Below, in pieces: positions 5,714 to 33,312 of a DNA stretch of 37,643 nt; the first letter of the stretch is position 1; every line of letters starts with the position of its first letter. Source of the stretch: Dimargaris cristalligena (taxonomy: Eukaryota). The notes beneath the pieces were generated by a model. That model worked only from the letters and a program-made list of their open reading frames with translations. It was not told the origin of the DNA and made no database searches. The DNA lies in NCBI GenBank assembly GCA_003614675.1, contig ML002366.1:1-37643 (forward strand), read 5' to 3'. The position numbers and the translations under genes were made by a program.

Positions 5714-6557
5714 CTAATTTTTCCGCCCCCCCGGAGTACCGCCAGCGGACCCAGCACCAGCGGGACTATTATTAATATTATTATTATTACCAGCAGCAGC
5801 TGACACATTGCCCCCGGAAGGTTGCGTGACATTAGCCCCGGAGGTGGCCATCATAAACGCTTGGGAATTAGCCTGCTGTTGACCAGCGGACATGGATCGG
5901 GCAAGGGCGTTCCAGTCCACCATACTTTGTTGCTGGAGTTGGTGCTGTTGAAATTGCTGTTGCTGCTGCTGTTGTTGTTGATGCTGTTGCTGTTGCTGCT
6001 GCTGATGTTGTTGCTGGAGTAGGTACTGATGGGTCAAATTGGCCATCATCCCGGCGTTCGGCTGTTGACCGTGGGGGGGCCGCAGACCTCCCCCCACCAC
6101 TAGTGAGTTATTATTGTTATTGTTGGCATTGCCATTGTTCCCCGCCGGATTCACCATTCCAGCTCCCCCCACGGCCATGAATTGCTGGCTGAGGCGATTG
6201 GCCAGGGCTGGATTCAGATTCATGGCCATATGGGGAGGCATACCCATCGCATTCGGATTACCGCCCATCGTAGGCTGCTGTGGTGGCCGACCGCCGGCCC
6301 CTCCAACTCCACCAGCACCACCACCCATGGCGTTCAGACTAGCTAGGAGCATCGGATTCATCGAAGAGACCATAGATGTCGGGATGTTTGATGATAACTG
6401 TTGACTGGTTTGTAGTTGTTGTTGTTGCTGCTGTTGCTGTTGCTGCTGAAGCACCTGGTTCCGGTACTGGGCGGTTAATTGCGATAACATCTGTGGTGGT
6501 ATAGGTCGACCATTAGCAGCCGCCCCCATTTGCAAAGCCCGGAGATGCTGCTGCTGC

Positions 6558-6589
<32 letters not shown>

Positions 6590-9500
6590 GTGGTGCTGGT
6601 GCTGCTGTTGAATGTGGAGTTGCTGCTGTTGGAGTTGGTGTTGAAGCTGGGCGTGTAACCTCGGGTTCTGCATGGCGATCGACTGGAGCATCGCAGGGGT
6701 AATATTGGGGACTCCGGGCATACCAGTGGGGGCGGGGGAGTTCGCGGGCATCATGGTGGGCGGCTTAGAGGCCATGGTGCCACCGGCCAGCTGCTCAAGG
6801 TAGGCGGCCTGGACCGCCGGAGGTAAACTGGCCAGCTGCCGTTGGATATCCGTTATATTGGCCGCGCCGGGAGCCATACCTAGTCCGGGATTAGCGCCGG
6901 CCCCTATGGGGTTGGGGTTCACATTATTACCGCCGGCTGACACGGCAGCCAGTTGGTTGGCCCAGGCCTGTAGCATAGGGTTAGAGTTCCCTGAAGTAGC
7001 CGGAGAATCGGCGGAGGTTGTTTTGATAGTGCTCGCCAGTGAAGGTCCGGAAATCGCGGTGTTCTGAGCTAGCGGGGAACCCATCATGTTGAACCCCGGG
7101 CCACTAAAGTTCTGGGGCATCAAGCTGGGGGACATCATCGTACCGGCGGATGACACAAGGTTCGTCATATTGTGGGCTACACCAGGGCGGTTAAGGGTCG
7201 GTGATGGCTGAATCAATGTGTTACCGGTTCCACTAGTGGCACGCTTACCCGCCCCGGACTTGGGAGTCAAGCTGCCGCCACCGGCGCCCCGCACAGAGGG
7301 ACTGCCTTGCTGGTTGGGCGGGGGAAACGTCCCGGCCATATTGGGATTGGGGGTGCTGGCTGCGCTCGACGGTCCGGGCGTAGGGCGGTTCGACCCAGTG
7401 GGCTTGACCTCCGCCGATTGTCCGGGCGTGGACGCTCCGGCATTGCTCGACATATCAGCTGGATTAGCCATCGGGGTCAGCTTACCACCGGCCGAACCTG
7501 ACCCACTGGCACCGGCCGCGGTCGCCGTTGATGATGATGATGATGCTGCTGCCGCCGCCGCATTGGCCTGCTGTCGTAAGACGTTAGTATACGTCATTTG
7601 GCGGAGAATACGAAGCCCGATCGGATACATCTGCTCCCGAGTCTTGTCCTTAGTATCAACGCCCCTGCTATTGAGATACGCTGTGGCCAGGTCGACCGGA
7701 TTAACCCCTTTGGCAATTTGGGCTTGGACCATGGCCTCCAGCTGGGGCGGGATGGCTGGACCACCGGCTGGAGGGGCCGCTGGGTTAGCTGGTGCTGGGG
7801 TAATGGCAGATGTCTGGAGTTGAGAGGAGGTTGGGGGTGCCGAACTGGGCACATCAGAGGAGGCTGAATTGGCGGTAATGGCCGTACTTATAATCGCAGC
7901 CGAATTCGTGGGCTGTGGCGAAGCGACAGCGGGGGGCTGGCTCATTAACCTATTACCCAACGGGGGCGAAAGTAAAGGCTGTTGAGGTTGGGCTAGCTGC
8001 TGTTGCTGGAGTTGTTGCTGTTGCTGTTGTTGCTGTTGCTGTTGGAGTTGCTGCTGCTGCTGTTGTTGTTGTTGCTGCTGCAGCTGCTGTCGCTGTCGCA
8101 AAGTGTTTTGTAAGGAGGCCTGTAGTGTCGAATTTTGGGACATTTGGTTAGGGTTGGTCGGTTGGCCAATAGGCAGTAGCGGAACCTGGGCTCTATCTAT
8201 ACCCGACGACGCAACGACATTCTGGCCACTGACCTGGTTGATGCCACTCACGTTTGGCTGTCCAGCCATGGGATTGGGCCCTTCGCCCGGATTGCCCCCT
8301 CCACCGGCCCCGGGATTTTGCTGCCGCATAGAAGCGACCCGCTGTTGGAAAATCCGCTGCAATAGGGCAAATTGCTGGGGTATAGCCCACGTTCGCACGG
8401 CCGGATAGGAAGTGATCAGGGAATTATACATTGGGTTATTGACCATAAGGGATTGCATTTGCATGAGTTGAGCGGCATTAACGGGGTTTACATTGGCCAC
8501 GGAGTTGGCGGCGGCGGCCGCCGCAAGGAAAGCGGGGTTGGGAGGGGTGCCCCCGGGTCCTGTCACGGCAGCTGCAGCTGCGGCGGCGGCCATTGCTGGA
8601 TTGTTGGGATCCATACCAAACGTAGCCACATCGGCCGATAGGTGGGGGGAGGTCAGGGAATTGGGATTGGTATTGGGATTAGAGTGAGGGTTGACTCCAA
8701 TATTAGCCCCTAAGCCCCCGGCCGATGACAATTTGCGCGACAGTGCGCCCACCACGGCGGGGGAGGCCATGGGCGACGGCCGAATGGGCAGCGACGGCGA
8801 CATGAGTTGAGGGCTCGACATGGGGTTGCTTATCATGCTCGGGGAGCGGTGCATGGCCGGGGCCAGGGAGACATTACCGCCCATTGGATTATTGCCACCG
8901 GCCATCATGACCGGAACAGCGGCATTGGGACCCGGAGTCGCTCCTGAGAAAGGCGTGAGCGCCCGACTAGAACCCAGTGATGGGGATTTATATCCGGAGG
9001 CCGTTGGGGTCGGTGGTACCTGGACCGAAGAGTCAGTGTAGGCCATTTGGCCCTCGGCATCACCACCCGCTCCAATCGTTGCTTTCGGTTTACTCGTTCT
9101 CTTACTCGTCTTGGGCCGAGACCTCGATTTGGAAACGGATTTAGCCACCAGGGGAGTTGCCGGTAGAACCAGGCCTCCGCCCGGGGGCATATCGGATATG
9201 GGGGTAGCCGTCGCTGAGGAAGGGACAGTCAGGGGCACTTGGTCCGCCGCGGTCAAGTCCAGTGGGGCGGGAAGCGTCGGTTCCATCGACCCTCGAGCAT
9301 TTGCGCCCTTCTTGCTTCGCTTGACCTTACGGGGTGATGCCGAGGCCCCGGAAGGCCTCAGAGAGCCATCCCCGGTTGGGGTATTATCCGCCCCGAGGGG
9401 GGCTCCGTCGGGGCCCAATCGAAGTGCCTTGTTGGTAAGGTTGGGTGTAGATGAAGCGGACCGCATACCAACCACCCTCGAGGGGGTAGCCGGGACGGAT

Positions 9501-11086
9501 CCCAAGCCTTCTCCACCACTTAGGGCAGCCGTTGATGCTGCGGTATTAGCAGCCGAGGCAGCGTTAGCAGCAGCAGCCGCGGCCGCGGCCTGGGCGGCCA
9601 ACTCCGCACTATCCGATACGAGCTTGTTCTGCATCCCATAGAAGAATTTAAAGTTCTCCAAATAGGTATTCAGCACCTCGGTGTTTGCCAATTCGAACTC
9701 CTGGGTTGTACCGTTGATACTCGTGTCAGGCACTGAACCGGAACGAAGGATACATTTAAAGCCCCCGGGGGTCGCCGCTGACGGATAAATATGAAGCGAA
9801 GTGTACATTTTGTTATTATCGGTGGTTTGTTCGAACCGCAGTATGCGTACCGTGGGAAGGGCCGCCGAACTACTACTGAGGAGCGGTGGAGGGGTCGTTC
9901 GATTGTTCGAACCCGGAGCGGTGGAACCAACGACCGTTGTCGGTTCGGGAGATCCCGTCCGGGACTTTTTACGGTCGGTGACCTTCTTGGGTGGTGGGGG
10001 GGTCACCAGGCCAGTTTCGGGCGTGGCCGACGGGCGGGTCCGGATCAGCATTTGCTGCTTACGCCATTCCTGAATGAATAAGAGCCGGTTGAAACTGGGT
10101 TGAAAGTCGCGCTGGTGGCGCTCATCCATCATCAGCAGCAGTTGGGTACGTTCCTGGAGGGCCGCGGCTTCCGCCTCGATTTCGGTCGAGTTGAATTTAC
10201 GCCGCTTATGGGCACTACCGGCCCCTTCCGGGTGAGCCATGTAGGCAATGGCATTACTTACGCGGGCTACTTGGAACGAAGGATTTAGGCATAGCGGTTC
10301 TTCCGTTTCCAGGAGTATTTTGGACTCCAGTTCCAGGGTCTCCTCCATCGTCAGCGGCTGGTCCCGCTCCCTCGATAGAAGACCAATGTTAGTCCACAAC
10401 GAAGCCGCGCTCGGGCGTAGGGCCTTGCGAAAGATACAGGGTTGGAGTACGGTGGGAAGACGCGAAACAAATGAAGTGGCGGAGGTGGGGGTAACCGCCC
10501 GGGAAGCCGTAGAGGTGGAGGAATGATTGGTATCGGCCCCGGTCATACCAGTTGGGGCAACTTCACCTTCACTCAGAATAAGCGTCGGGGCCACCGACGG
10601 TTCATCGAACGGTAATGGCGGTTTACGGCCCCGGCGGTCAGTCAGACGGTGGTCGTGAACCTCCACAATCAAGTGCCCTTCAAAGAACGGTAACTGGGCT
10701 TCGTGAAACACGTCCTGAAGGTCGACGGGCATCGTTCCGTCACGAATAAAATCAAAGAAGAACCGCATGGGTGAGCTGAGCAGGTACATACCGTCCTGGT
10801 GCTCGAACCGAAAGTGGTTCGCGTAGACGTGCATGATAAGCGAAGGGGGCGACGCGCGGTATTTCTCCAGTAGCCGGAGGGCGGGCGACGACGAAGGGGG
10901 AGTGGCGGTAGCGGTGTGCGGGTGAGTAGTCGATAGGGTGCCGTCATGGGTGGAGGGGATCGGCAGCGGAGGATCCCGACTAAACGGGTTTATGGTCTCG
11001 TGACCGTGACCCACGGGACCATTATTGCCGCCGGTATGGCCGCCATTAGTAGAGGGAGGAGCGGTCATTAAGACGTTAGGGCTCAT
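5714..11086 (-). CDS. SPT20: SAGA complex subunit Spt20-family protein (1790 aa)
   Basis: N-terminal LLEKYRASPPSLIMHVYANHFRFEHQDG...MRFFFDFIRDGTMPVDLQDVF...LPFFEGHLIVEVHDHR...LRPSAASLWTNI...LELESKILLETEEPLCLNPS matches my recollection of the fungal Spt20 domain (about 10240-10873), followed by a long Q/N/G/M-rich low-complexity tail. Single uninterrupted ORF. Confidence 0.9.
5926..6017 (-). repeat. CAG/CAA polyglutamine tract in Spt20
   Basis: (ctg/ttg)n on the plus strand encoding QQQHQQQQQQQHQQQQQQQQQFQQHQLQQQ. Confidence 0.9.
6416..6640 (-). repeat. Two CAG/CAA polyglutamine tracts in Spt20
   Basis: (ctg/ttg)n runs at about 6416-6447 and 6546-6640. Confidence 0.9.
7996..8088 (-). repeat. 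CAG/CAA polyglutamine tract in Spt20
   Basis: Encodes QQQLQQQQQQQQQQQLQQQQQQQQQQQLQQQQ. Confidence 0.9.
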
Positions 11087-11276
11087 GGTCGTGGGGCGAC
11101 GAGGGTATATGCGTGTATGTTTATATACGACCCTCTCGCCAATGAAGGAGCCGATTTAAACAGGAAGGGGGAGGATTCCTCAGTAAAATAATCGAGGGAA
11201 ATTTAAAAAACGACAGCCAAAACAGGTTGAGGGAAAATGCCCAAATAACAATGAAGTCGTATCCACATACACATAA

Positions 11277-13125: not shown

Positions 13126-13440
13126 TCAGTGTCGGCGGCTGGTGCCTTGGTTCTGTTTAATTTCCTTATTAGTCTTGCGCTTCAATTTCCAGGCTCCATA
13201 GCGGAGTTTCCAATTGGCGGACTTGCCATGCACCCAATTCTTGACGCCTTGCCATGAGCGGCGCTCGAGAGCTCCTGGCGCGGATGTGGTAGAGGTGGCG
13301 GCGACAGTGGCAGCCTTGGGGGCATTGATGGCATCGAGATTAATGGGCGTCACGGGGCCATGGCCAGCCGACGCACCGGAAGCGAAGTGGTAGTAACCCA
13401 ATAGCGCCTGACTAAGAACGACCAGGGAGAGAAGCTTCAT
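13126..13440 (-). CDS. Small secreted prepropeptide (104 aa) with a Kex2-type LERR site and a cationic Trp-rich C-terminal peptide
   Basis: ATG 13440 in GCC-ATG context; signal-like MKLLSLVVLSQALLGYYHFASGA; Ala/Thr-rich pro-region; LERR; then SWQGVKNWVHGKSANWKLRYGAWKLKRKTNKEIKQNQGTSRRH. TATATAAA upstream. Confidence 0.8.
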   Translation of the reverse strand: MKLLSLVVLSQALLGYYHFASGASAGHGPVTPINLDAINAPKAATVAATSTTSAPGALERRSWQGVKNWVHGKSANWKLRYGAWKLKRKTNKEIKQNQGTSRRH

Positions 13441-13653
13441 GGCGTATAAGAAAGCAGGGATGAAAAAACTGAGCGGGAGAGGGATTATGGAGTGAAGCAA
13501 ATGCTAGAGGAACGGTAAGGAGATATCGAGAGAGGTTTGTTAGGGTTAGATTCGCTATCGAATACGTGGAAAATTGGCCGACCCAGTTATAGATATAAAA
13601 AAAAGGATGCTTATTGAATGAGGTTGTCTCTGTCGGCAACAAAACCACTGCCA

Positions 13654-13661
13654 TTTATATA
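13654..13661 (-). promoter_or_regulatory. TATA box of the cationic peptide precursor gene
   Basis: TATATAAA on the minus strand about 215 nt upstream of ATG 13440. A possible short 5'UTR intron (GTATTC...CTAAC...CTAG, about 13505-13565) lies between. Confidence 0.5.
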
Positions 13662-15266
13662 TTGCCGGGCTTTGGGATGATAGTACACTGGGAGTGAAAT
13701 CATTAGGCACACATCTTGAACTTGGCTGCACGATGCCGCTGTTTTTATCTCCCTATTATTTTTCCGAAGTAGCACATGTGGCAAGCCACCGAAGAGTCGA
13801 TTTCAAGCTGCCCAGTCTATTTCGTTTTTCATGGGCACCATCGTTTTTTTTAAAATAACATAAAATAAACCGCTCCCGTGTGTATTAAACATGTAAGTAG
13901 TCCCAATTAAATCCCTTGGAATGGGATCTTTGCAAGCGAACTGGACCTAGAGCATGGCACGGCTTAGGTGTTCCTTACACAACAGTTCATGATTCAACAC
14001 TAAGGTCACTCGAACAAAAAGTTTGAAAAGCGAAAGCCCTAAACGTTAAGGGCGCCCCAAAGTCGTCGGGCATTACCACGATAGAGTAGTACAATAGGCG
14101 TCATTGCGATAGGGTTAGTCTACAGCTCCTAAAATAGCACCGGAATAGAGATGAAGAATCCGGCGGGTGGCACATGTGAATAACTCTCCCTGTAGTTGGT
14201 GACTCTGCGGAAACCACTCATGAAAAGCGACTGGTGGCATTCGTTGGTGGAAAACCAGAGGGGCAAGGAAGGGCCAGCGGAATGTACTGTATTCAAGGCC
14301 AGAAACCGAGACCAAAAGCGAGAGTGAGGGAGATAGGGCTGGTAGAAAACATGCCTAGTGGCGGGAAGTGGCAAGTCCTAGGCGTAACCATCATTGTTAT
14401 ACAGGACCGCCGCCTCGTAGACGGCGGAAATCTTCGGTTCGCTTGGTTTTCAATTGACCGGGCTCGTTTTATGTTAATACAATAAAATAAAATCGATGGT
14501 GTTGAGCTTTAAAAGCCGTCGATGAACCTGACCACTAAAATGTAATAGGGGCTTGAATATTCAATGACTCGCCAATGTTCATTGCCAGTGGTTTATCCAT
14601 CAAGTAGGTGTATAATTTACTCTACAACTAAGGCCTAGATTAAGGCCCTTATCCCGGAGGTGCCGATGAAAATAATACCGTCAGCATTCGATCATCACTG
14701 CGATAGGCAAACGCCCACCGGAGGACACTAAGGGTTGGTGCGCATTGAAAACATGCTGCTATACCCACCCTTAACAGAAGGGCTTAGCATTAGTGACCGG
14801 TCACCGGATGGGTGGTACAAGGTGGTACAAGGCATTGGTTGGGTTCGGCAGTAGCGAAAGGTCAAGATAGCATGGTCCCTCTAGGGGCCGAGAGCCGACC
14901 TAGCATATTATCGGTTCATTGGTCGACACACATGGCCTACATTTGGCGCAGGGCAAGGGCATATCCGCTTTTTGAAGATGGGATAGATAGCTTCTGGCAA
15001 AGAAAAGGGAGTATTAAATCACTATTTATTATTTACGGATAGCGAGTATAGTTGGTAGGAGGTATAATGCCTACGATTTGGTAATCTCGCTGGCATAATA
15101 CCCCCAGAAGTTGGGTGTGTGTAAAGCACATCCGGCTATGAGTTATTAGGGACCACTATCCGAGGGTGAACTAAAGTATTTGAGATGGAGGAAGGTTGGG
15201 AAGAAGGCTCGAAGGGAATCACCTAAATGTACAACAACGGTAGCGGCGGGGATACTATGGGATAAA

Positions 15267-15524
15267 TTAAAGGCGTGTGTAGGCGGACAGGGCAACCAAG
15301 AGAGCCGAACCCGAGTACACGGTCAGGGACGAGGCAGCGCTAGTGGCGTTGGTGGTTTTATCGGCGGTAGTCGAGTCAGCATTGGTCTTGGTCGTGGTGC
15401 CGTGATCGTGGTCGTGGTCGGTACCAGTAGGGTTGGCCGCAGGCTCCGTAATGGTGGTAGTCATAAGGTGGGGCACGGCGGAAACCGAGACGACGGCGGC
15501 GGCGAGGAGCAGAATGACCTTCAT
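15267..15524 (-). CDS. Small secreted Thr-rich protein (85 aa), probably GPI-anchored or cell-wall
   Basis: CACC-ATG context; signal MKVILLLAAAVVSVSA; Thr/Ala/Asp-rich body with DHDHDH; small-residue stretch (TSAASS) then hydrophobic tail (LTVYSGSALLVALSAY); C-ending codon bias. Confidence 0.8.
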   Translation of the reverse strand: MKVILLLAAAVVSVSAVPHLMTTTITEPAANPTGTDHDHDHGTTTKTNADSTTADKTTNATSAASSLTVYSGSALLVALSAYTRL

Positions 15525-27727: not shown

Positions 27728-30700
27728 TTACCACAGATCATCGCTCAGATCGAACACGTGGTTCACAATATCTTGGTGGCTAACAATAGCGGTACTGCCA
27801 ATAATGATCTAGAATCGCAAACATTATACCGGCATATCGATCGGGGAAGATGTTGTAAAAAAAGGGGGGGTTAGTGACAGCCTCGTAAAGGATAGCTAGC
27901 TAATAAATAAATCCAGCGACAGTTGCAGGCAAACATGAGGTGCGCTTACGAAGTTTTATCAATAAAGGATACAATAAGGAATGCGTGCATCTACTTAACG
28001 GACTTATTAAAAAAAACAAGTGGTTACAAACAATGCTTTAGTTACTACTTACCTTGGGCGCCTGGGGATAATGCTTTTGTAATTGCTGTCGCACCTGTTG
28101 AATCTCCCAGAAGGTGATGCCCCCCACAACGAACAGGTAAACGGGTCCCTGGGTCTGACTGAACGGATGGGCCGTAGCCGTTTTAACGAGTCGACTTAAT
28201 CCGGCGAAGTAGCCCGACAGACCCGAACCACCGGTACTAGTACCCATACCTGAACCCGTCGGCGTACCCTCACCACCGCTACCGGCACCGATGCCAGCGC
28301 CGACTTTGGAAGTGCTGGGGTGGTATTGCAAGTCGGCAAACAGCCGTTTACCGAGTTGGTCCAGGGATCCGTGTCGGGACCGGCCGGTCAAAGGAGAGGC
28401 CGGTGATTCCGAGGGGGTCGCTCCCGTGGGGTCCGTTTCCCCCAGGGCTTGGACGAGACGCACAACGAGAGGCACATAAGGATCCGCTACGCCGGGAGTT
28501 TGTAAGCGGTGGAAATAACCCAGGCCCCGACGGGCGTCGGCCACGGGTCGAAGGTGTCGGAAAAGATCCCGGATCCAAGCCCGAAACCGGTCGCGGGCAG
28601 CCTCGCCATCACGATTATTGGAGTTAGAGTTGGAGTTGGAGGTGGTGGTGGTTGAGGCAGTTTGGGTCCACCAGCGTTCAAATGAAGTATCCAATCGATC
28701 CAGAAAGTGGGTCTCCGGTTCGGTGAAGGACGGATCCGAAGTTGACGTAGTGGAGGTGGGGGGGATGGCCGATGGTCCCACCATCGAATAGGCCATTACC
28801 AAAAGGGAGAGCACGACCCGGAAAGTGTACGGCGTGGTTATTGAATGGCTCGGGGAAAGCCCGGGTTCAGCTGAGACTCTTTTACCACCATTATTTTCCC
28901 CCTTCACCTCTTCCCTCTCCTCCACCACCTCCCGCCACGCACGGGGAAAACTCGAGGCGTCCGGCAACACATCCAGAACCCGTCCCAACCGTTCGATACT
29001 TTGTTCCACCGAAGCGGGCCCTGCCGTTTCGCCCTCCAAGTCTTCGGCGCGGGCGGTTAATAGAAGCACCTTTTCAATCCCTCCGCGAATGTCGTCCCAC
29101 TGCTGGGCCGTCGCTTGCTGCAAAGTTTCGATGCACGCCGTCGTCGTAACGAGTGGGGTGAGGGACTTGCGCCAGCGGGCGGGGTAACCCTCCCCACTGC
29201 AGGCCGTGATAACCTTCTGGAGTTGGGCAACGGTTACTTTCCCGAGGGCCTTGGGGGGTTTGACCTTGGGGAAATGCCCACCTTGCGCAAGCGTATCCGC
29301 CAGCTTTTTGCGCACCAGAATCAAACCCTCTTTACTGTTGAGAGGAATGAGTTGGTCGAGTTGGAAATGGCCCGGATAGGGGTGGGGCTGGTATGATGAA
29401 AGGGCACTGGCGAGGGAATAGGGGAGGGGCGGGGGAGTATCATCGTGGTCCAGGACCCGGGTCTGGGAGAGATTGGTGCTGGTATTGGTATTGGTGGATA
29501 GGGGGGATGGGGTCGAGCGAGCCCGCTGACCCAAAGGAGTCGTCGCCCCCCCTCCCGAGGTACTGTTGTTACCGTCCGCTGAGTGAGCGTGGGGCGGGGT
29601 TACTTCCCGGTCGATGGGATTTTCGCCCAATTTAGGCAGCGCCTGGAACAATTGGTCGGCCAGGTGGTCGGTATGCATGACCGGTGCCACCAAATCCAGA
29701 CTCCGGTCGACCATAATCAAGGATACGGGCGTCTTTGGCGTAGGGCCCGTCGGTATGGGACTATGAATCAATTGCTCAGCCATACCCACCGCCACCTTGC
29801 GGGCGAATTTGCCCAAGGTGAATAATTCGGGTCGCTGGCCTTGGCCATGGAAAAATGCCATTAGGGTCTGACTCAATTCACGGGCCTGGTCGGTCACTTG
29901 GACGTACAGCTGGGCCAGTTGTTCGGCGGACTCGGCGGTATCAGGTACGGCGGGGGAAAATAAGTGGTCGCAGTCCGGCAGCGTGAACACGTCCGGAGTC
30001 AACGCAGCGTGGTTGAGGGGGGCGTAATAAATGTGGACACTAGGTGGCGGCGGGTGATCAGCGTTGGTTGAAGAAGACGCTGCATGAGGGTGAGTGGGGG
30101 GAGGTGGTTGAGACCAATGCCTAATGACGGCTATCATCGAATCAAATGAGGATAGGAGGGCGTCATGATCGGAGCGGCTGCCGGAGCGCGACCGTCCCGA
30201 GGGGCTCAGCAGAGACCGCCGGGGGGATGATGGCTCTGCTACTACCGTACCTGGACTTCCAGTGAGGCCCCGTTGGAGAGGTTCCGGTACCCCCGTGAAG
30301 ATATGGAATTCGGAATACCGATGGTGACGAAGGAGAATTTGCAGCTCCGCTTCGTAGTGACGGATATCCCGAGCCAGACAGACGATCGCCACCGATGGTT
30401 CCGGTAGGCCTAACGGTAAAGGGAGGGGGGGGGACGATAGTAGGGGTTGGCCATCATGGTCACCGGAGGTGTTGGGGCTCGGGTGCTGCTTGTCTTTGGA
30501 ACCGGCCCCCGCGTCCGGTCCCCAATCCCAATCCCCCCAGCCTTCGCCCTCCTCCTCCTCTTCACCCTCGTCCGTATCGCTAGGGTCGGCCTGTCGAGCA
30601 GAAGGAGGGCTGGCCAAAATAATACGGTCAACCTCATCCTGGAGTCCCTTGACCAGACGAGCTCCGCCTTCGGGGGCTGTCGACCCAGGTGGGCCGTAGA

Positions 30701-32628: not shown

Positions 32629-33312
32629 ATGAAGGTCTCCATCGCTGCTTTGCTTCTCGTGCTTCACATCGCACTGGTCCACTCCGCCCCCGTGGCCCAT
32701 TCTCAGTCTACCGTCACTGCCATTGATGCCACTAACCCGAAGGCGAGTCTGACTGGTGACCTGTCGACTCCGACGGAGCACCAACACCAGCATATCAAAC
32801 GGGATGGTTTGACGACCGGTTTCCAACGCTTCGACCATCGTGGGGAAGTCGAAGATAACGAAGATGGTGGCGAAGAACTCCCTAGCTGGGATGACGAATG
32901 GGTCAACCAGGAGGAGAACGAAGCCACTCCTGACCAGGCTCTCTACCGCCATTATTACGACTACGAAGGCGAAGACCAGGAAGATTATGAGTGGGACAAC
33001 CGGGAGGAAAATAGCGGCATTGGCCAGGCTCTCTACCGCCGCGACCACAGCCACGGCCACGACCACGATTACGAAGGCGAGGGTCAAGAGGAGGAGGATG
33101 AATGGGATAGCCAGGAGGAAGATGAGTGGGATGGTCAGGCTCTCTACCGCCGCAGCTACGACCACGGCCGCAACCGCGGCGGCGAAGATATCGAACAGCA
33201 GGCCTACCGCCGCGACCACGACCAGGAAGAAGACTACAGCGACAATGACTACAGCGGCGATGATGACGGCGAGTGGAGTGAGTGGGACAGTGAAGACGAG
33301 GGTAAGAACTAA
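32629..33312 (+). CDS. Secreted Kex2-processed repeat protein (KEP-like, 227 aa) with acidic QALYRR-terminated units
   Basis: Signal MKVSIAALLLVLHIALVHS|AP; IKR at aa 56-58; units ending QALYRH, QALYRR, QALYRR, QQAYRR; D/E-rich with repeated EWD and DYEGE; TATA and CACC-ATG context. Confidence 0.85.
   Translation: MKVSIAALLLVLHIALVHSAPVAHSQSTVTAIDATNPKASLTGDLSTPTEHQHQHIKRDGLTTGFQRFDHRGEVEDNEDGGEELPSWDDEWVNQEENEATPDQALYRHYYDYEGEDQEDYEWDNREENSGIGQALYRRDHSHGHDHDYEGEGQEEEDEWDSQEEDEWDGQALYRRSYDHGRNRGGEDIEQQAYRRDHDQEEDYSDNDYSGDDDGEWSEWDSEDEGKN
32935..33151 (+). repeat. Three exact copies of the 16-mer CAGGCTCTCTACCGCC (coding QALYR)
   Basis: Copies at 32935-32950, 33025-33040 and 33136-33151 (periods 90 and 111 nt, both in frame); a variant CAGGCCTACCGCCGC at about 33199. 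Confidence 0.9.

Follow-up and report, generated by a model that had tools for sequence, protein, structure and literature searches.

The whole of a 37,643-bp contig of Dimargaris cristalligena (Kickxellomycotina, Dimargaritales) was analysed and is referred to here as the window. On its minus strand lies a 104-codon ORF, P0001, which raises the question of whether it is a gene at all and, if it is, whether its product is a secreted precursor that yields a short, basic, Trp-rich peptide. A sequence-only reading of the same DNA had proposed a precursor of a linear peptide antibiotic or toxin and had implied a fungal origin, and D. cristalligena is indeed a fungus; according to the available part of PMC9866270, the Dimargaritales parasitise other fungi by means of haustoria. 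Translation of the minus strand from 13440 to 13126 gave exactly the 104-aa product that had been quoted. Its stop-to-stop frame runs from 13126 to 13503 and contains no in-frame ATG upstream of 13440. The layout of the protein is a signal-peptide-like start, an Ala/Thr/Ser-rich spacer, the motif LERR (residues 58-61), and a Cys-free basic 43-mer, with the following features:

13126..13440, minus strand: whole P0001 ORF, 104 aa by translation, with ATG at 13438-13440 and TGA at 13126-13128.
13360..13440, minus strand: signal-peptide-like N-terminus, approximately residues 1-27 (MK, a hydrophobic core, and an ASGASA run of small residues), by a heuristic and by an AF2 helix over residues 4-21.
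13258..13359, minus strand: putative pro-region, approximately residues 28-61, Ala/Thr/Ser/Pro/Gly-rich, predicted to be mostly non-helical and ending in GALERR, from sequence and AF2.
13258..13269, minus strand: LERR, candidate kexin (Kex2) site, at which a cut after R61 would be expected from the fit to the motif.
13129..13257, minus strand: basic Trp-rich tail of 43 residues, net charge +11 by composition, with KR at 26-27 and RR at 41-42 in tail numbering.

The ORF had been described as unannotated, a description that does not hold, as both public annotations of D. cristalligena contain it and NCBI has the identical protein, deposited with the second assembly, as a 104-aa hypothetical protein. 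Strain RSA 468 was annotated by the JGI pipeline, and the term “transcriptom” is absent from the accessible text of the genome paper (PMC6784888); for the second sequenced strain, RSA 1219, funannotate was used ab initio. Because of this, we regard P0001 as annotated but uncharacterised, with visible RNA support for neither model; no transcript or peptide support for it was found in the public annotation or in the accessible text of PMC6784888.

The two annotations disagree on the structure of the gene. In the second assembly, P0001 and the upstream 85-aa P0007 are two separate genes, whereas the model deposited for this contig, RKP38451.1 (P0008, 173 aa), runs from P0007 residues 1-79 directly into P0001 residues 11-104. 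We reconstructed the hypothetical intron of the fused model and set beside it the sole other intron mapped on the contig:

13412..15288, minus strand: hypothetical 1877-nt intron of RKP38451.1, by exact reconstruction, with donor GTCCGCCT directly after cct and acceptor TCGTTCTTAG.
27809-28052, minus strand: intron of 244 nt close to the 3' end of the Sec1-family gene, by mapping of P0011.

The Sec1-family intron, placed by mapping P0011 from the other strain (mismatches at 2/952 residues), has a GTAAGT donor, a CACTAAC branch site, and a TAG end. Apart from this intron, the large genes on the contig are long intron-free ORFs. The donor of the RKP38451.1 intron is GTCCGC, which is weak, and the fused model makes intronic both the last six codons and stop of P0007 and the in-frame Met-Lys-hydrophobic start of P0001. 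We favour two genes because of the weak donor, the length of 1877 nt against 244 nt (a comparison with one intron only), and the discarded P0007 stop and P0001 start. Thus, the 1877-nt intron is unlikely, and the fusion is probably an annotation error.

Several lines of evidence show that P0001 is very probably a real gene. A GC island covers it (0.53-0.61, versus 0.38-0.51 in the flanks), and its GC3 of 0.64, compared with 0.60-0.62 in the adjoining genes, is sustained at 0.63-0.66 in both halves; in the tail GC3 is 0.63, though GC1 and GC2 are 0.44. Its Arg codons are all CGN (6/6), matching the genome preference. The coding log-odds of P0001 is +22.9, the sixth highest among the 64 ATG-to-stop ORFs of the window, with +24.2 contributed by the pre-pro half and a neutral -1.3 by the tail. 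A second scoring, which included the stop codon, gave +17.9 for the P0001 frame, -23.9 and -37.2 for the other two frames, and -4.1, -32.6, and -54.7 for the antisense frames. When ORFs were simulated from an order-3 Markov model of the DNA around P0001, 0 of ~2,427 reached the per-codon coding score of P0001. Its length, by comparison, is unremarkable, the same model yielding 2.4 ORFs of at least 104 aa per 11.7 kb. A signal-peptide-like start, scored by a simple fixed heuristic that was written after the sequences had been seen, was found in 3 of the 64 window ORFs (P0001, P0007, and P0009, all high-scoring small proteins) and in 16 of ~2,427 simulated ones. The ATG has a purine at -3, and residues 11-104 were called coding by both independent ab initio pipelines. 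P0001 is identical in the two strains (104/104), an identity that is uninformative because the adjoining proteins differ by only 2/227 and 2/952 residues; purifying selection on P0001 cannot be claimed, because no homologue or paralogue was found.

P0001 is situated in a gene-sparse stretch of 11.7 kb (~11.2-22.9 kb) between two large genes, on a contig that is otherwise gene-dense, and a clear coding signal in this stretch is confined to P0001 and P0007. Pfam matched 0 of the 105 ORFs of at least 50 aa between 11.2 and 22.9 kb. Around the locus there were no Rfam families or tRNAs, and a repeat scan gave three short weak pairs, 0 of them overlapping P0001. Effector-type genes in gene-sparse regions are familiar in filamentous pathogens, which is an analogy and not evidence for P0001. 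Elsewhere on the contig, positions 5714-11155 of the minus strand hold an uninterrupted 1,813-codon ORF in which runs of poly-Q, poly-A, and poly-N are extremely abundant, and an ORF with two Chitin_bind_1 (CBM18) domains lies at 2081-2749 on the minus strand. The real model of the latter differs, because its simple ATG-to-stop translation is not an annotated protein; in the accessible text of the genome paper, CBM18 expansion is given as unique to D. cristalligena (PMC6784888).

Searches for relatives found no homologue of P0001. An exhaustive phmmer search of 1.84 billion representatives returned nothing beyond its own cluster and four matches that we rejected, and a word-indexed search returned its own cluster only. 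Pfam, a PDB sequence search, and the ESM Atlas (entire protein, and tail by itself) gave no match; a known structural protein family, which the sequence-only reading had set against its own proposal, was looked for in these three resources, and none was found. Two of the rejected matches, the bacterial fn3-repeat protein P0002 and the repeat protein P0003, aligned only to the Ala/Thr/Ser stretch, each in many copies. The other two, P0004 and P0005, have the 14-residue motif “ALxxRSWxGVKxxV” in common with the LERR-SWQGVKNWV region of P0001, and kinship with their repeat (the RSWKGVKDYVRNR motif) was rejected at 14/36 identities in only the last third of a ~60-residue unit. Single stretches of these proteins reach 27-30 bits, a score that, on a simple calculation, a library of 2.4e11 residues should give thousands of times over. 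As the bit scores are low and the E value of ~5e-6 is a sum over four repeat copies, we took the likeness to be a coincidence; the repeat unit itself has no Pfam family above cutoff.

Within the window, tblastn found no paralogue of P0001, the best non-self match (E 0.019) being low-complexity antisense of the poly-Q gene. On these searches, P0001 is an apparently species-restricted orphan. Yardstick searches for the nearest sequenced relative, in which the 8,000 candidates sharing most words were scored, gave one Fusarium match at 30% identity for the DIP2-like neighbour and the species' own protein only for the Sec1-like neighbour, so that the absence of P0001 from other Dimargaritales may be uninformative.

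The arrangement of signal, pro-piece, dibasic site, and basic tail proposed in the sequence-only reading is supported as far as motifs and predictions go. Residues 22-54 have an AF2 pLDDT of 52-58 and little secondary structure, and the 34 residues ahead of LERR are Ala/Thr/Ser/Pro/Gly-rich with low pLDDT. Dibasic sites occur at residues 60-61 (GALERR followed by S), 87-88 (KR), 88-89 (RK), and 102-103 (RR). As set out in the accessible text of PMC8528282, Kex2 prefers Arg at P1, Lys at P2 (Arg and others being tolerated), and Leu or another aliphatic residue at P4; in fungal Kex2-processed pro-domain (K2PP) proteins the pro-domain is disordered and N-terminal, and K2PP candidates have disorder-promoting residues before KR, RR, or LxxR within the first half of the protein. 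LERR, which had been read as an LxRR site of the Kex2 type, fits the motif described there (PMC8528282, accessible text) with Leu at P4, Arg at P2, and Arg at P1, and from this fit we infer a kexin cut after R61. At 61/104 (59%), the site falls a little beyond the halfway point, or at ~35/77 once the signal has been removed. It stands exactly between the neutral and basic halves, and the AF2 model puts it within a helix. The net charge of residues 1-61 is +2, so the pro-piece is not acidic, whereas that of many antimicrobial-peptide precursors is. Release of the 25-mer ending GAWKL would require the KR cut plus the loss of two C-terminal basic residues, and the trimming of such residues is a Kex1-type step.

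The composition of the tail is as it had been described: a 43-mer following LERR that is free of Cys, contains 8 K, 4 R, 1 E, and 0 D (net +11), and has Trp at positions 2, 8, 16, and 23. The net charge of the 25-mer is +5. Windows of +11 are common in spurious frames, occurring in 7/64 window ORFs and 122/7,401 simulated ORFs; combined with at least four Trp residues they are rare (1/64 and 1/7,401), by criteria that were chosen post hoc, after the sequence had been seen. From the single sequence, an input that favours helices, AF2 gave one helix spanning residues 55-100, in which the pLDDT block means were 80, 85, 94, and 79; the overall pLDDT was 68.8 and the pTM 0.28.

The further claim of an amphipathic helix, with W2, V5, V9, W16, Y20, and W23 on one face, was not borne out. 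On a 100-degree wheel these residues do fall at 40-100 degrees, but the hydrophobic moment is not above that of shuffled sequences. W8, L18, L25, A14, and A22 are on the opposite side of the wheel, and K12, R19, and R27 are inside or beside the named arc. On the Eisenberg scale, the moment of the 25-mer was 0.117 against a shuffle mean of 0.186, with 75% of shuffles equalling or exceeding the observed value, and that of the 43-mer was 0.217 against 0.152, with 20% of shuffles doing so. A calculation by hand for the 25-mer, with a Trp-weighted scale, gave ~0.23, which is still low. By this moment test, which consists of the Eisenberg scale plus the one hand calculation, hydrophobic and polar faces are not segregated in the tail. 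The moment of the 25-mer (tail residues 1-25) peaks at 160 degrees (0.454), a possible strand-like periodicity, and W2, W8, W16, and Y20 are all at even positions.

Two other small proteins encoded in the window have signal-peptide-like starts:

32629-33312, plus strand: P0009, 227 aa, hypothetical in both assemblies (2/227 residues differ), from annotation and sequence.
15267..15524, minus strand: P0007, 85 aa, Thr-rich with a signal-peptide-like start, containing HDHDH and ending in a hydrophobic C-terminus; the second assembly treats it as a gene of its own.

P0009 has a signal peptide, a ~38-residue leader ending in HIKR, and then a hyper-acidic body in which fragments of net charge -20, -14, 0, and -15 are separated by QALYRR, QALYRR, and QQAYRR; there is also one QALYRH. 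It has no Pfam family, and from its sequence it looks like a Kex2-processed repeat protein. On account of its three (A/L)YRR sites, RR with an aliphatic residue at P4 seems to be a recurrent signal in D. cristalligena. Among the 64 ORFs, P0007 scores highest for coding, and its C-terminus, judged by eye, resembles a GPI-anchor signal. The sequence-only reading had suggested a search for paralogues sharing the prepro region, and beyond the empty in-window tblastn result there is a weak likeness among leaders. The pro-region of P0001 is weakly similar to the post-signal leaders of P0009 (BLASTP E 0.042, shuffle z 2.7) and P0007 (E 0.017, shuffle z 2.0), and comparisons among all three leaders gave E values of 0.042, 0.017, and 0.015 and shuffle z values of 2.0-2.7 without the signal peptides. 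The pattern common to the three in the alignment is His...Thr-rich...(D/E)AxN(A)P. Relatedness of the leaders is suggestive only.

The explanation that we favour, tentatively and at somewhat less than an even chance, is that P0001, an orphan gene in a mycoparasite, encodes a secreted pre-pro-peptide of the Kex2 type and that its basic helical product binds a polyanionic target. The signal peptide would take the precursor into the endoplasmic reticulum and would be removed around residues 22-27, and a disordered Ala/Thr/Ser-rich pro-piece of ~35 residues would then be removed in the Golgi by kexin after LERR61, as the motif suggests. The predicted product is a 43-residue, Cys-free, Trp-rich peptide of charge +11 that tends to form a single helix, and a second cut at KR, with trimming of basic residues, could shorten it. 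Its target is a matter of speculation and might be a polyanion at the parasite-host interface (acidic wall polymers, a membrane surface, or nucleic acid), bound through electrostatic and aromatic contacts. Because the helix is not facially amphipathic, we think polyanion binding likelier than classic pore-forming lysis, and any antimicrobial, cytolytic, or cell-penetrating action of the tail is speculation.

Of the alternatives, one deserves more weight than the rest although we still consider it unlikely, namely, that P0001 is non-functional, either a chance GC-rich ORF taken up by gene finders or a young proto-gene that is unexpressed and unselected. The absence of a homologue anywhere searched is what such an ORF would show, as are gene models that are ab initio only and in disagreement, a length that arises by chance 2.4 times per 11.7 kb, surroundings in which 0/105 ORFs match Pfam, and a tail with a neutral coding score in a window where 7/64 ORFs have basic stretches. 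A chance ORF does not readily explain why the coding signal is specific to one of six frames, the other five all being negative, or why GC3 stays at 0.63-0.66 in both halves with only CGN codons for Arg. Nor does it explain why the three signal-peptide-like starts all belong to ORFs with high coding scores, why a canonical Kex2 context falls exactly where the neutral half meets the basic half, or why a purine is at -3 of the ATG. If instead the gene is real and RKP38451.1 is its correct model, the P0007 signal and a Thr-rich ectodomain would be followed by the internal hydrophobic segment ALLVALQALLGYYHFA as a membrane anchor, and the basic helix would be a cytoplasmic tail. That model is the one deposited for this very contig, its intron has GT and AG and keeps the reading frame, and the joined hydrophobic stretch is of about membrane-span length; we nevertheless consider it very unlikely, given a donor (GTCCGCCT) far from GTAAGT, an intron of 1877 nt versus 244 nt in the one comparison available, and no CTRAY branch motif seen by eye in the last ~100 nt. 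It also drops a P0007 stop that lies six codons past the donor and the ATG-Lys-hydrophobic start that P0001 has immediately ahead of the acceptor; two separate genes are called by the other pipeline, and transcript data are not evident in the accessible text of PMC6784888.

The remaining alternatives accept secretion and differ from our preferred explanation in what becomes of the tail. P0001 might be secreted uncleaved, as a mature protein of ~77 residues in which an O-glycosylated Ala/Thr/Ser stalk carries a helix bound non-covalently to acidic wall material. This would suit the Thr/Ser-rich spacer, which is like that of the wall-type neighbour P0007, and the position of LERR within the AF2 helix, and surfaces with Trp plus Lys/Arg are common in glycan binding. 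Against it, LERR is a near-ideal kexin context, RR sites are apparently used repeatedly in P0009 of the same species, and no wall-binding family was matched, and we rate it as decidedly improbable. The proposal of the sequence-only reading, by which the 43-mer or 25-mer would form an amphipathic helix and act on membranes as an antimicrobial or cytolytic agent, here taken to be used against a fungal host or competitors, we judge improbable. A net charge of +11, four Trp residues, freedom from Cys, a predicted helix, a Kex2-type site ahead of the 43-mer, and a combination of basic and Trp-rich character seen in 1/7,401 simulated ORFs all speak for a lytic peptide, which would have a plausible use in a mycoparasitic lifestyle, but the moments (0.117 versus 0.186 for the 25-mer and 0.217 versus 0.152 for the 43-mer) are not above shuffles, the hydrophobic residues form two opposite stripes, and Lys and Arg lie within and around the named arc. 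In addition, three Gly residues occur in the first 21 of the tail, the pro-piece is not acidic, and there is no family or relative with a known activity. Going beyond the explanation that we prefer, the three leaders could belong to a secreted family with interchangeable cargoes: a basic Trp helix in P0001, hyper-acidic RR-cut repeats in P0009, and a Thr-rich wall protein in P0007. The cargo of P0001 would then be a Kex2-released linear cationic peptide deployed at the haustorial interface against a Mucorales host, acting by polyanion or surface binding and not through amphipathic pores. We regard this as a long shot; if true, it would give the Zoopagomycota their first known host-targeting linear peptide of ribosomal origin.

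Almost nothing is known of the attack mechanisms of haustorial mycoparasites among early-diverging fungi, and published genome analyses, in the parts available, treat proteases, CAZymes, chitinases, and NRPS genes (PMC9866270 and PMC6784888). If expressed and processed as proposed, P0001 would be a concrete, synthesisable candidate effector from a haustorial mycoparasite lineage, and it and its two neighbours would give a hint of a family of secreted peptides that share a leader. For now, P0001 joins the orphan small secreted proteins of which every fungal genome has many; in practice it is useful as a test case and for correcting a public gene model that is probably mis-fused.

KEX2-processed repeat proteins (KEPs), including the alpha-factor precursors (PMC6339444, accessible text), are like P0001 in being secreted precursors from which kexin would free a short peptide, but P0001 has one leader, one cargo, and no repeated motif. 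The KEP rule given in the available part of PMC6339444 calls for four or more fragments, each 2 aa or longer, after all KR/RR cuts and at least three repeated motifs, and cuts after residues 61, 88, and 103 of P0001 leave three fragments of at least 2 aa plus a single His, with no repeats. P0009, with its three (A/L)YRR sites, looks KEP-like.

Among peptides, the Trp/Arg/Lys-rich antimicrobial peptides indolicidin, tritrpticin, and those derived from puroindoline are, like the tail, Cys-free, cationic, and Trp-rich. They come from animals and plants, have 13-20 residues, and have a far higher Trp fraction, whereas the tail has 43 residues, four Trp, and a long polar Lys/Asn/Gln C-terminus, and no homology was found. 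Candidalysin, from Ece1 of Candida albicans, is a Kex2-released, Cys-free, helical fungal peptide active on the cells of another organism, as the P0001 peptide might be. Several peptides come from the Ece1 precursor, and candidalysin itself is hydrophobic, amphipathic, and of small positive charge. The P0001 tail, in contrast, is highly charged, is not amphipathic by the moment test, and is without sequence similarity to anything searched.

The cargoes of K2PP effectors are folded and usually Cys-rich, whereas that of P0001 would be a 43-residue Cys-free basic helix and not a folded domain. P0001 differs from these effectors also in that its site, at 61/104, is just beyond the first half, its host is a fungus and not a plant, and its processing is as yet predicted. 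What P0001 would have in common with K2PP effectors such as SnTox3, ToxA, and SIX1/4/6, as these are described in the accessible text of PMC8528282, is the succession of a putative signal, a pro-domain predicted to be disordered and rich in disorder-promoting residues, KR/RR/LxxR with Leu at P4, and a mature part; like them, it is small, probably secreted, confined to its lineage, and from a fungus with a biotrophic or parasitic life.
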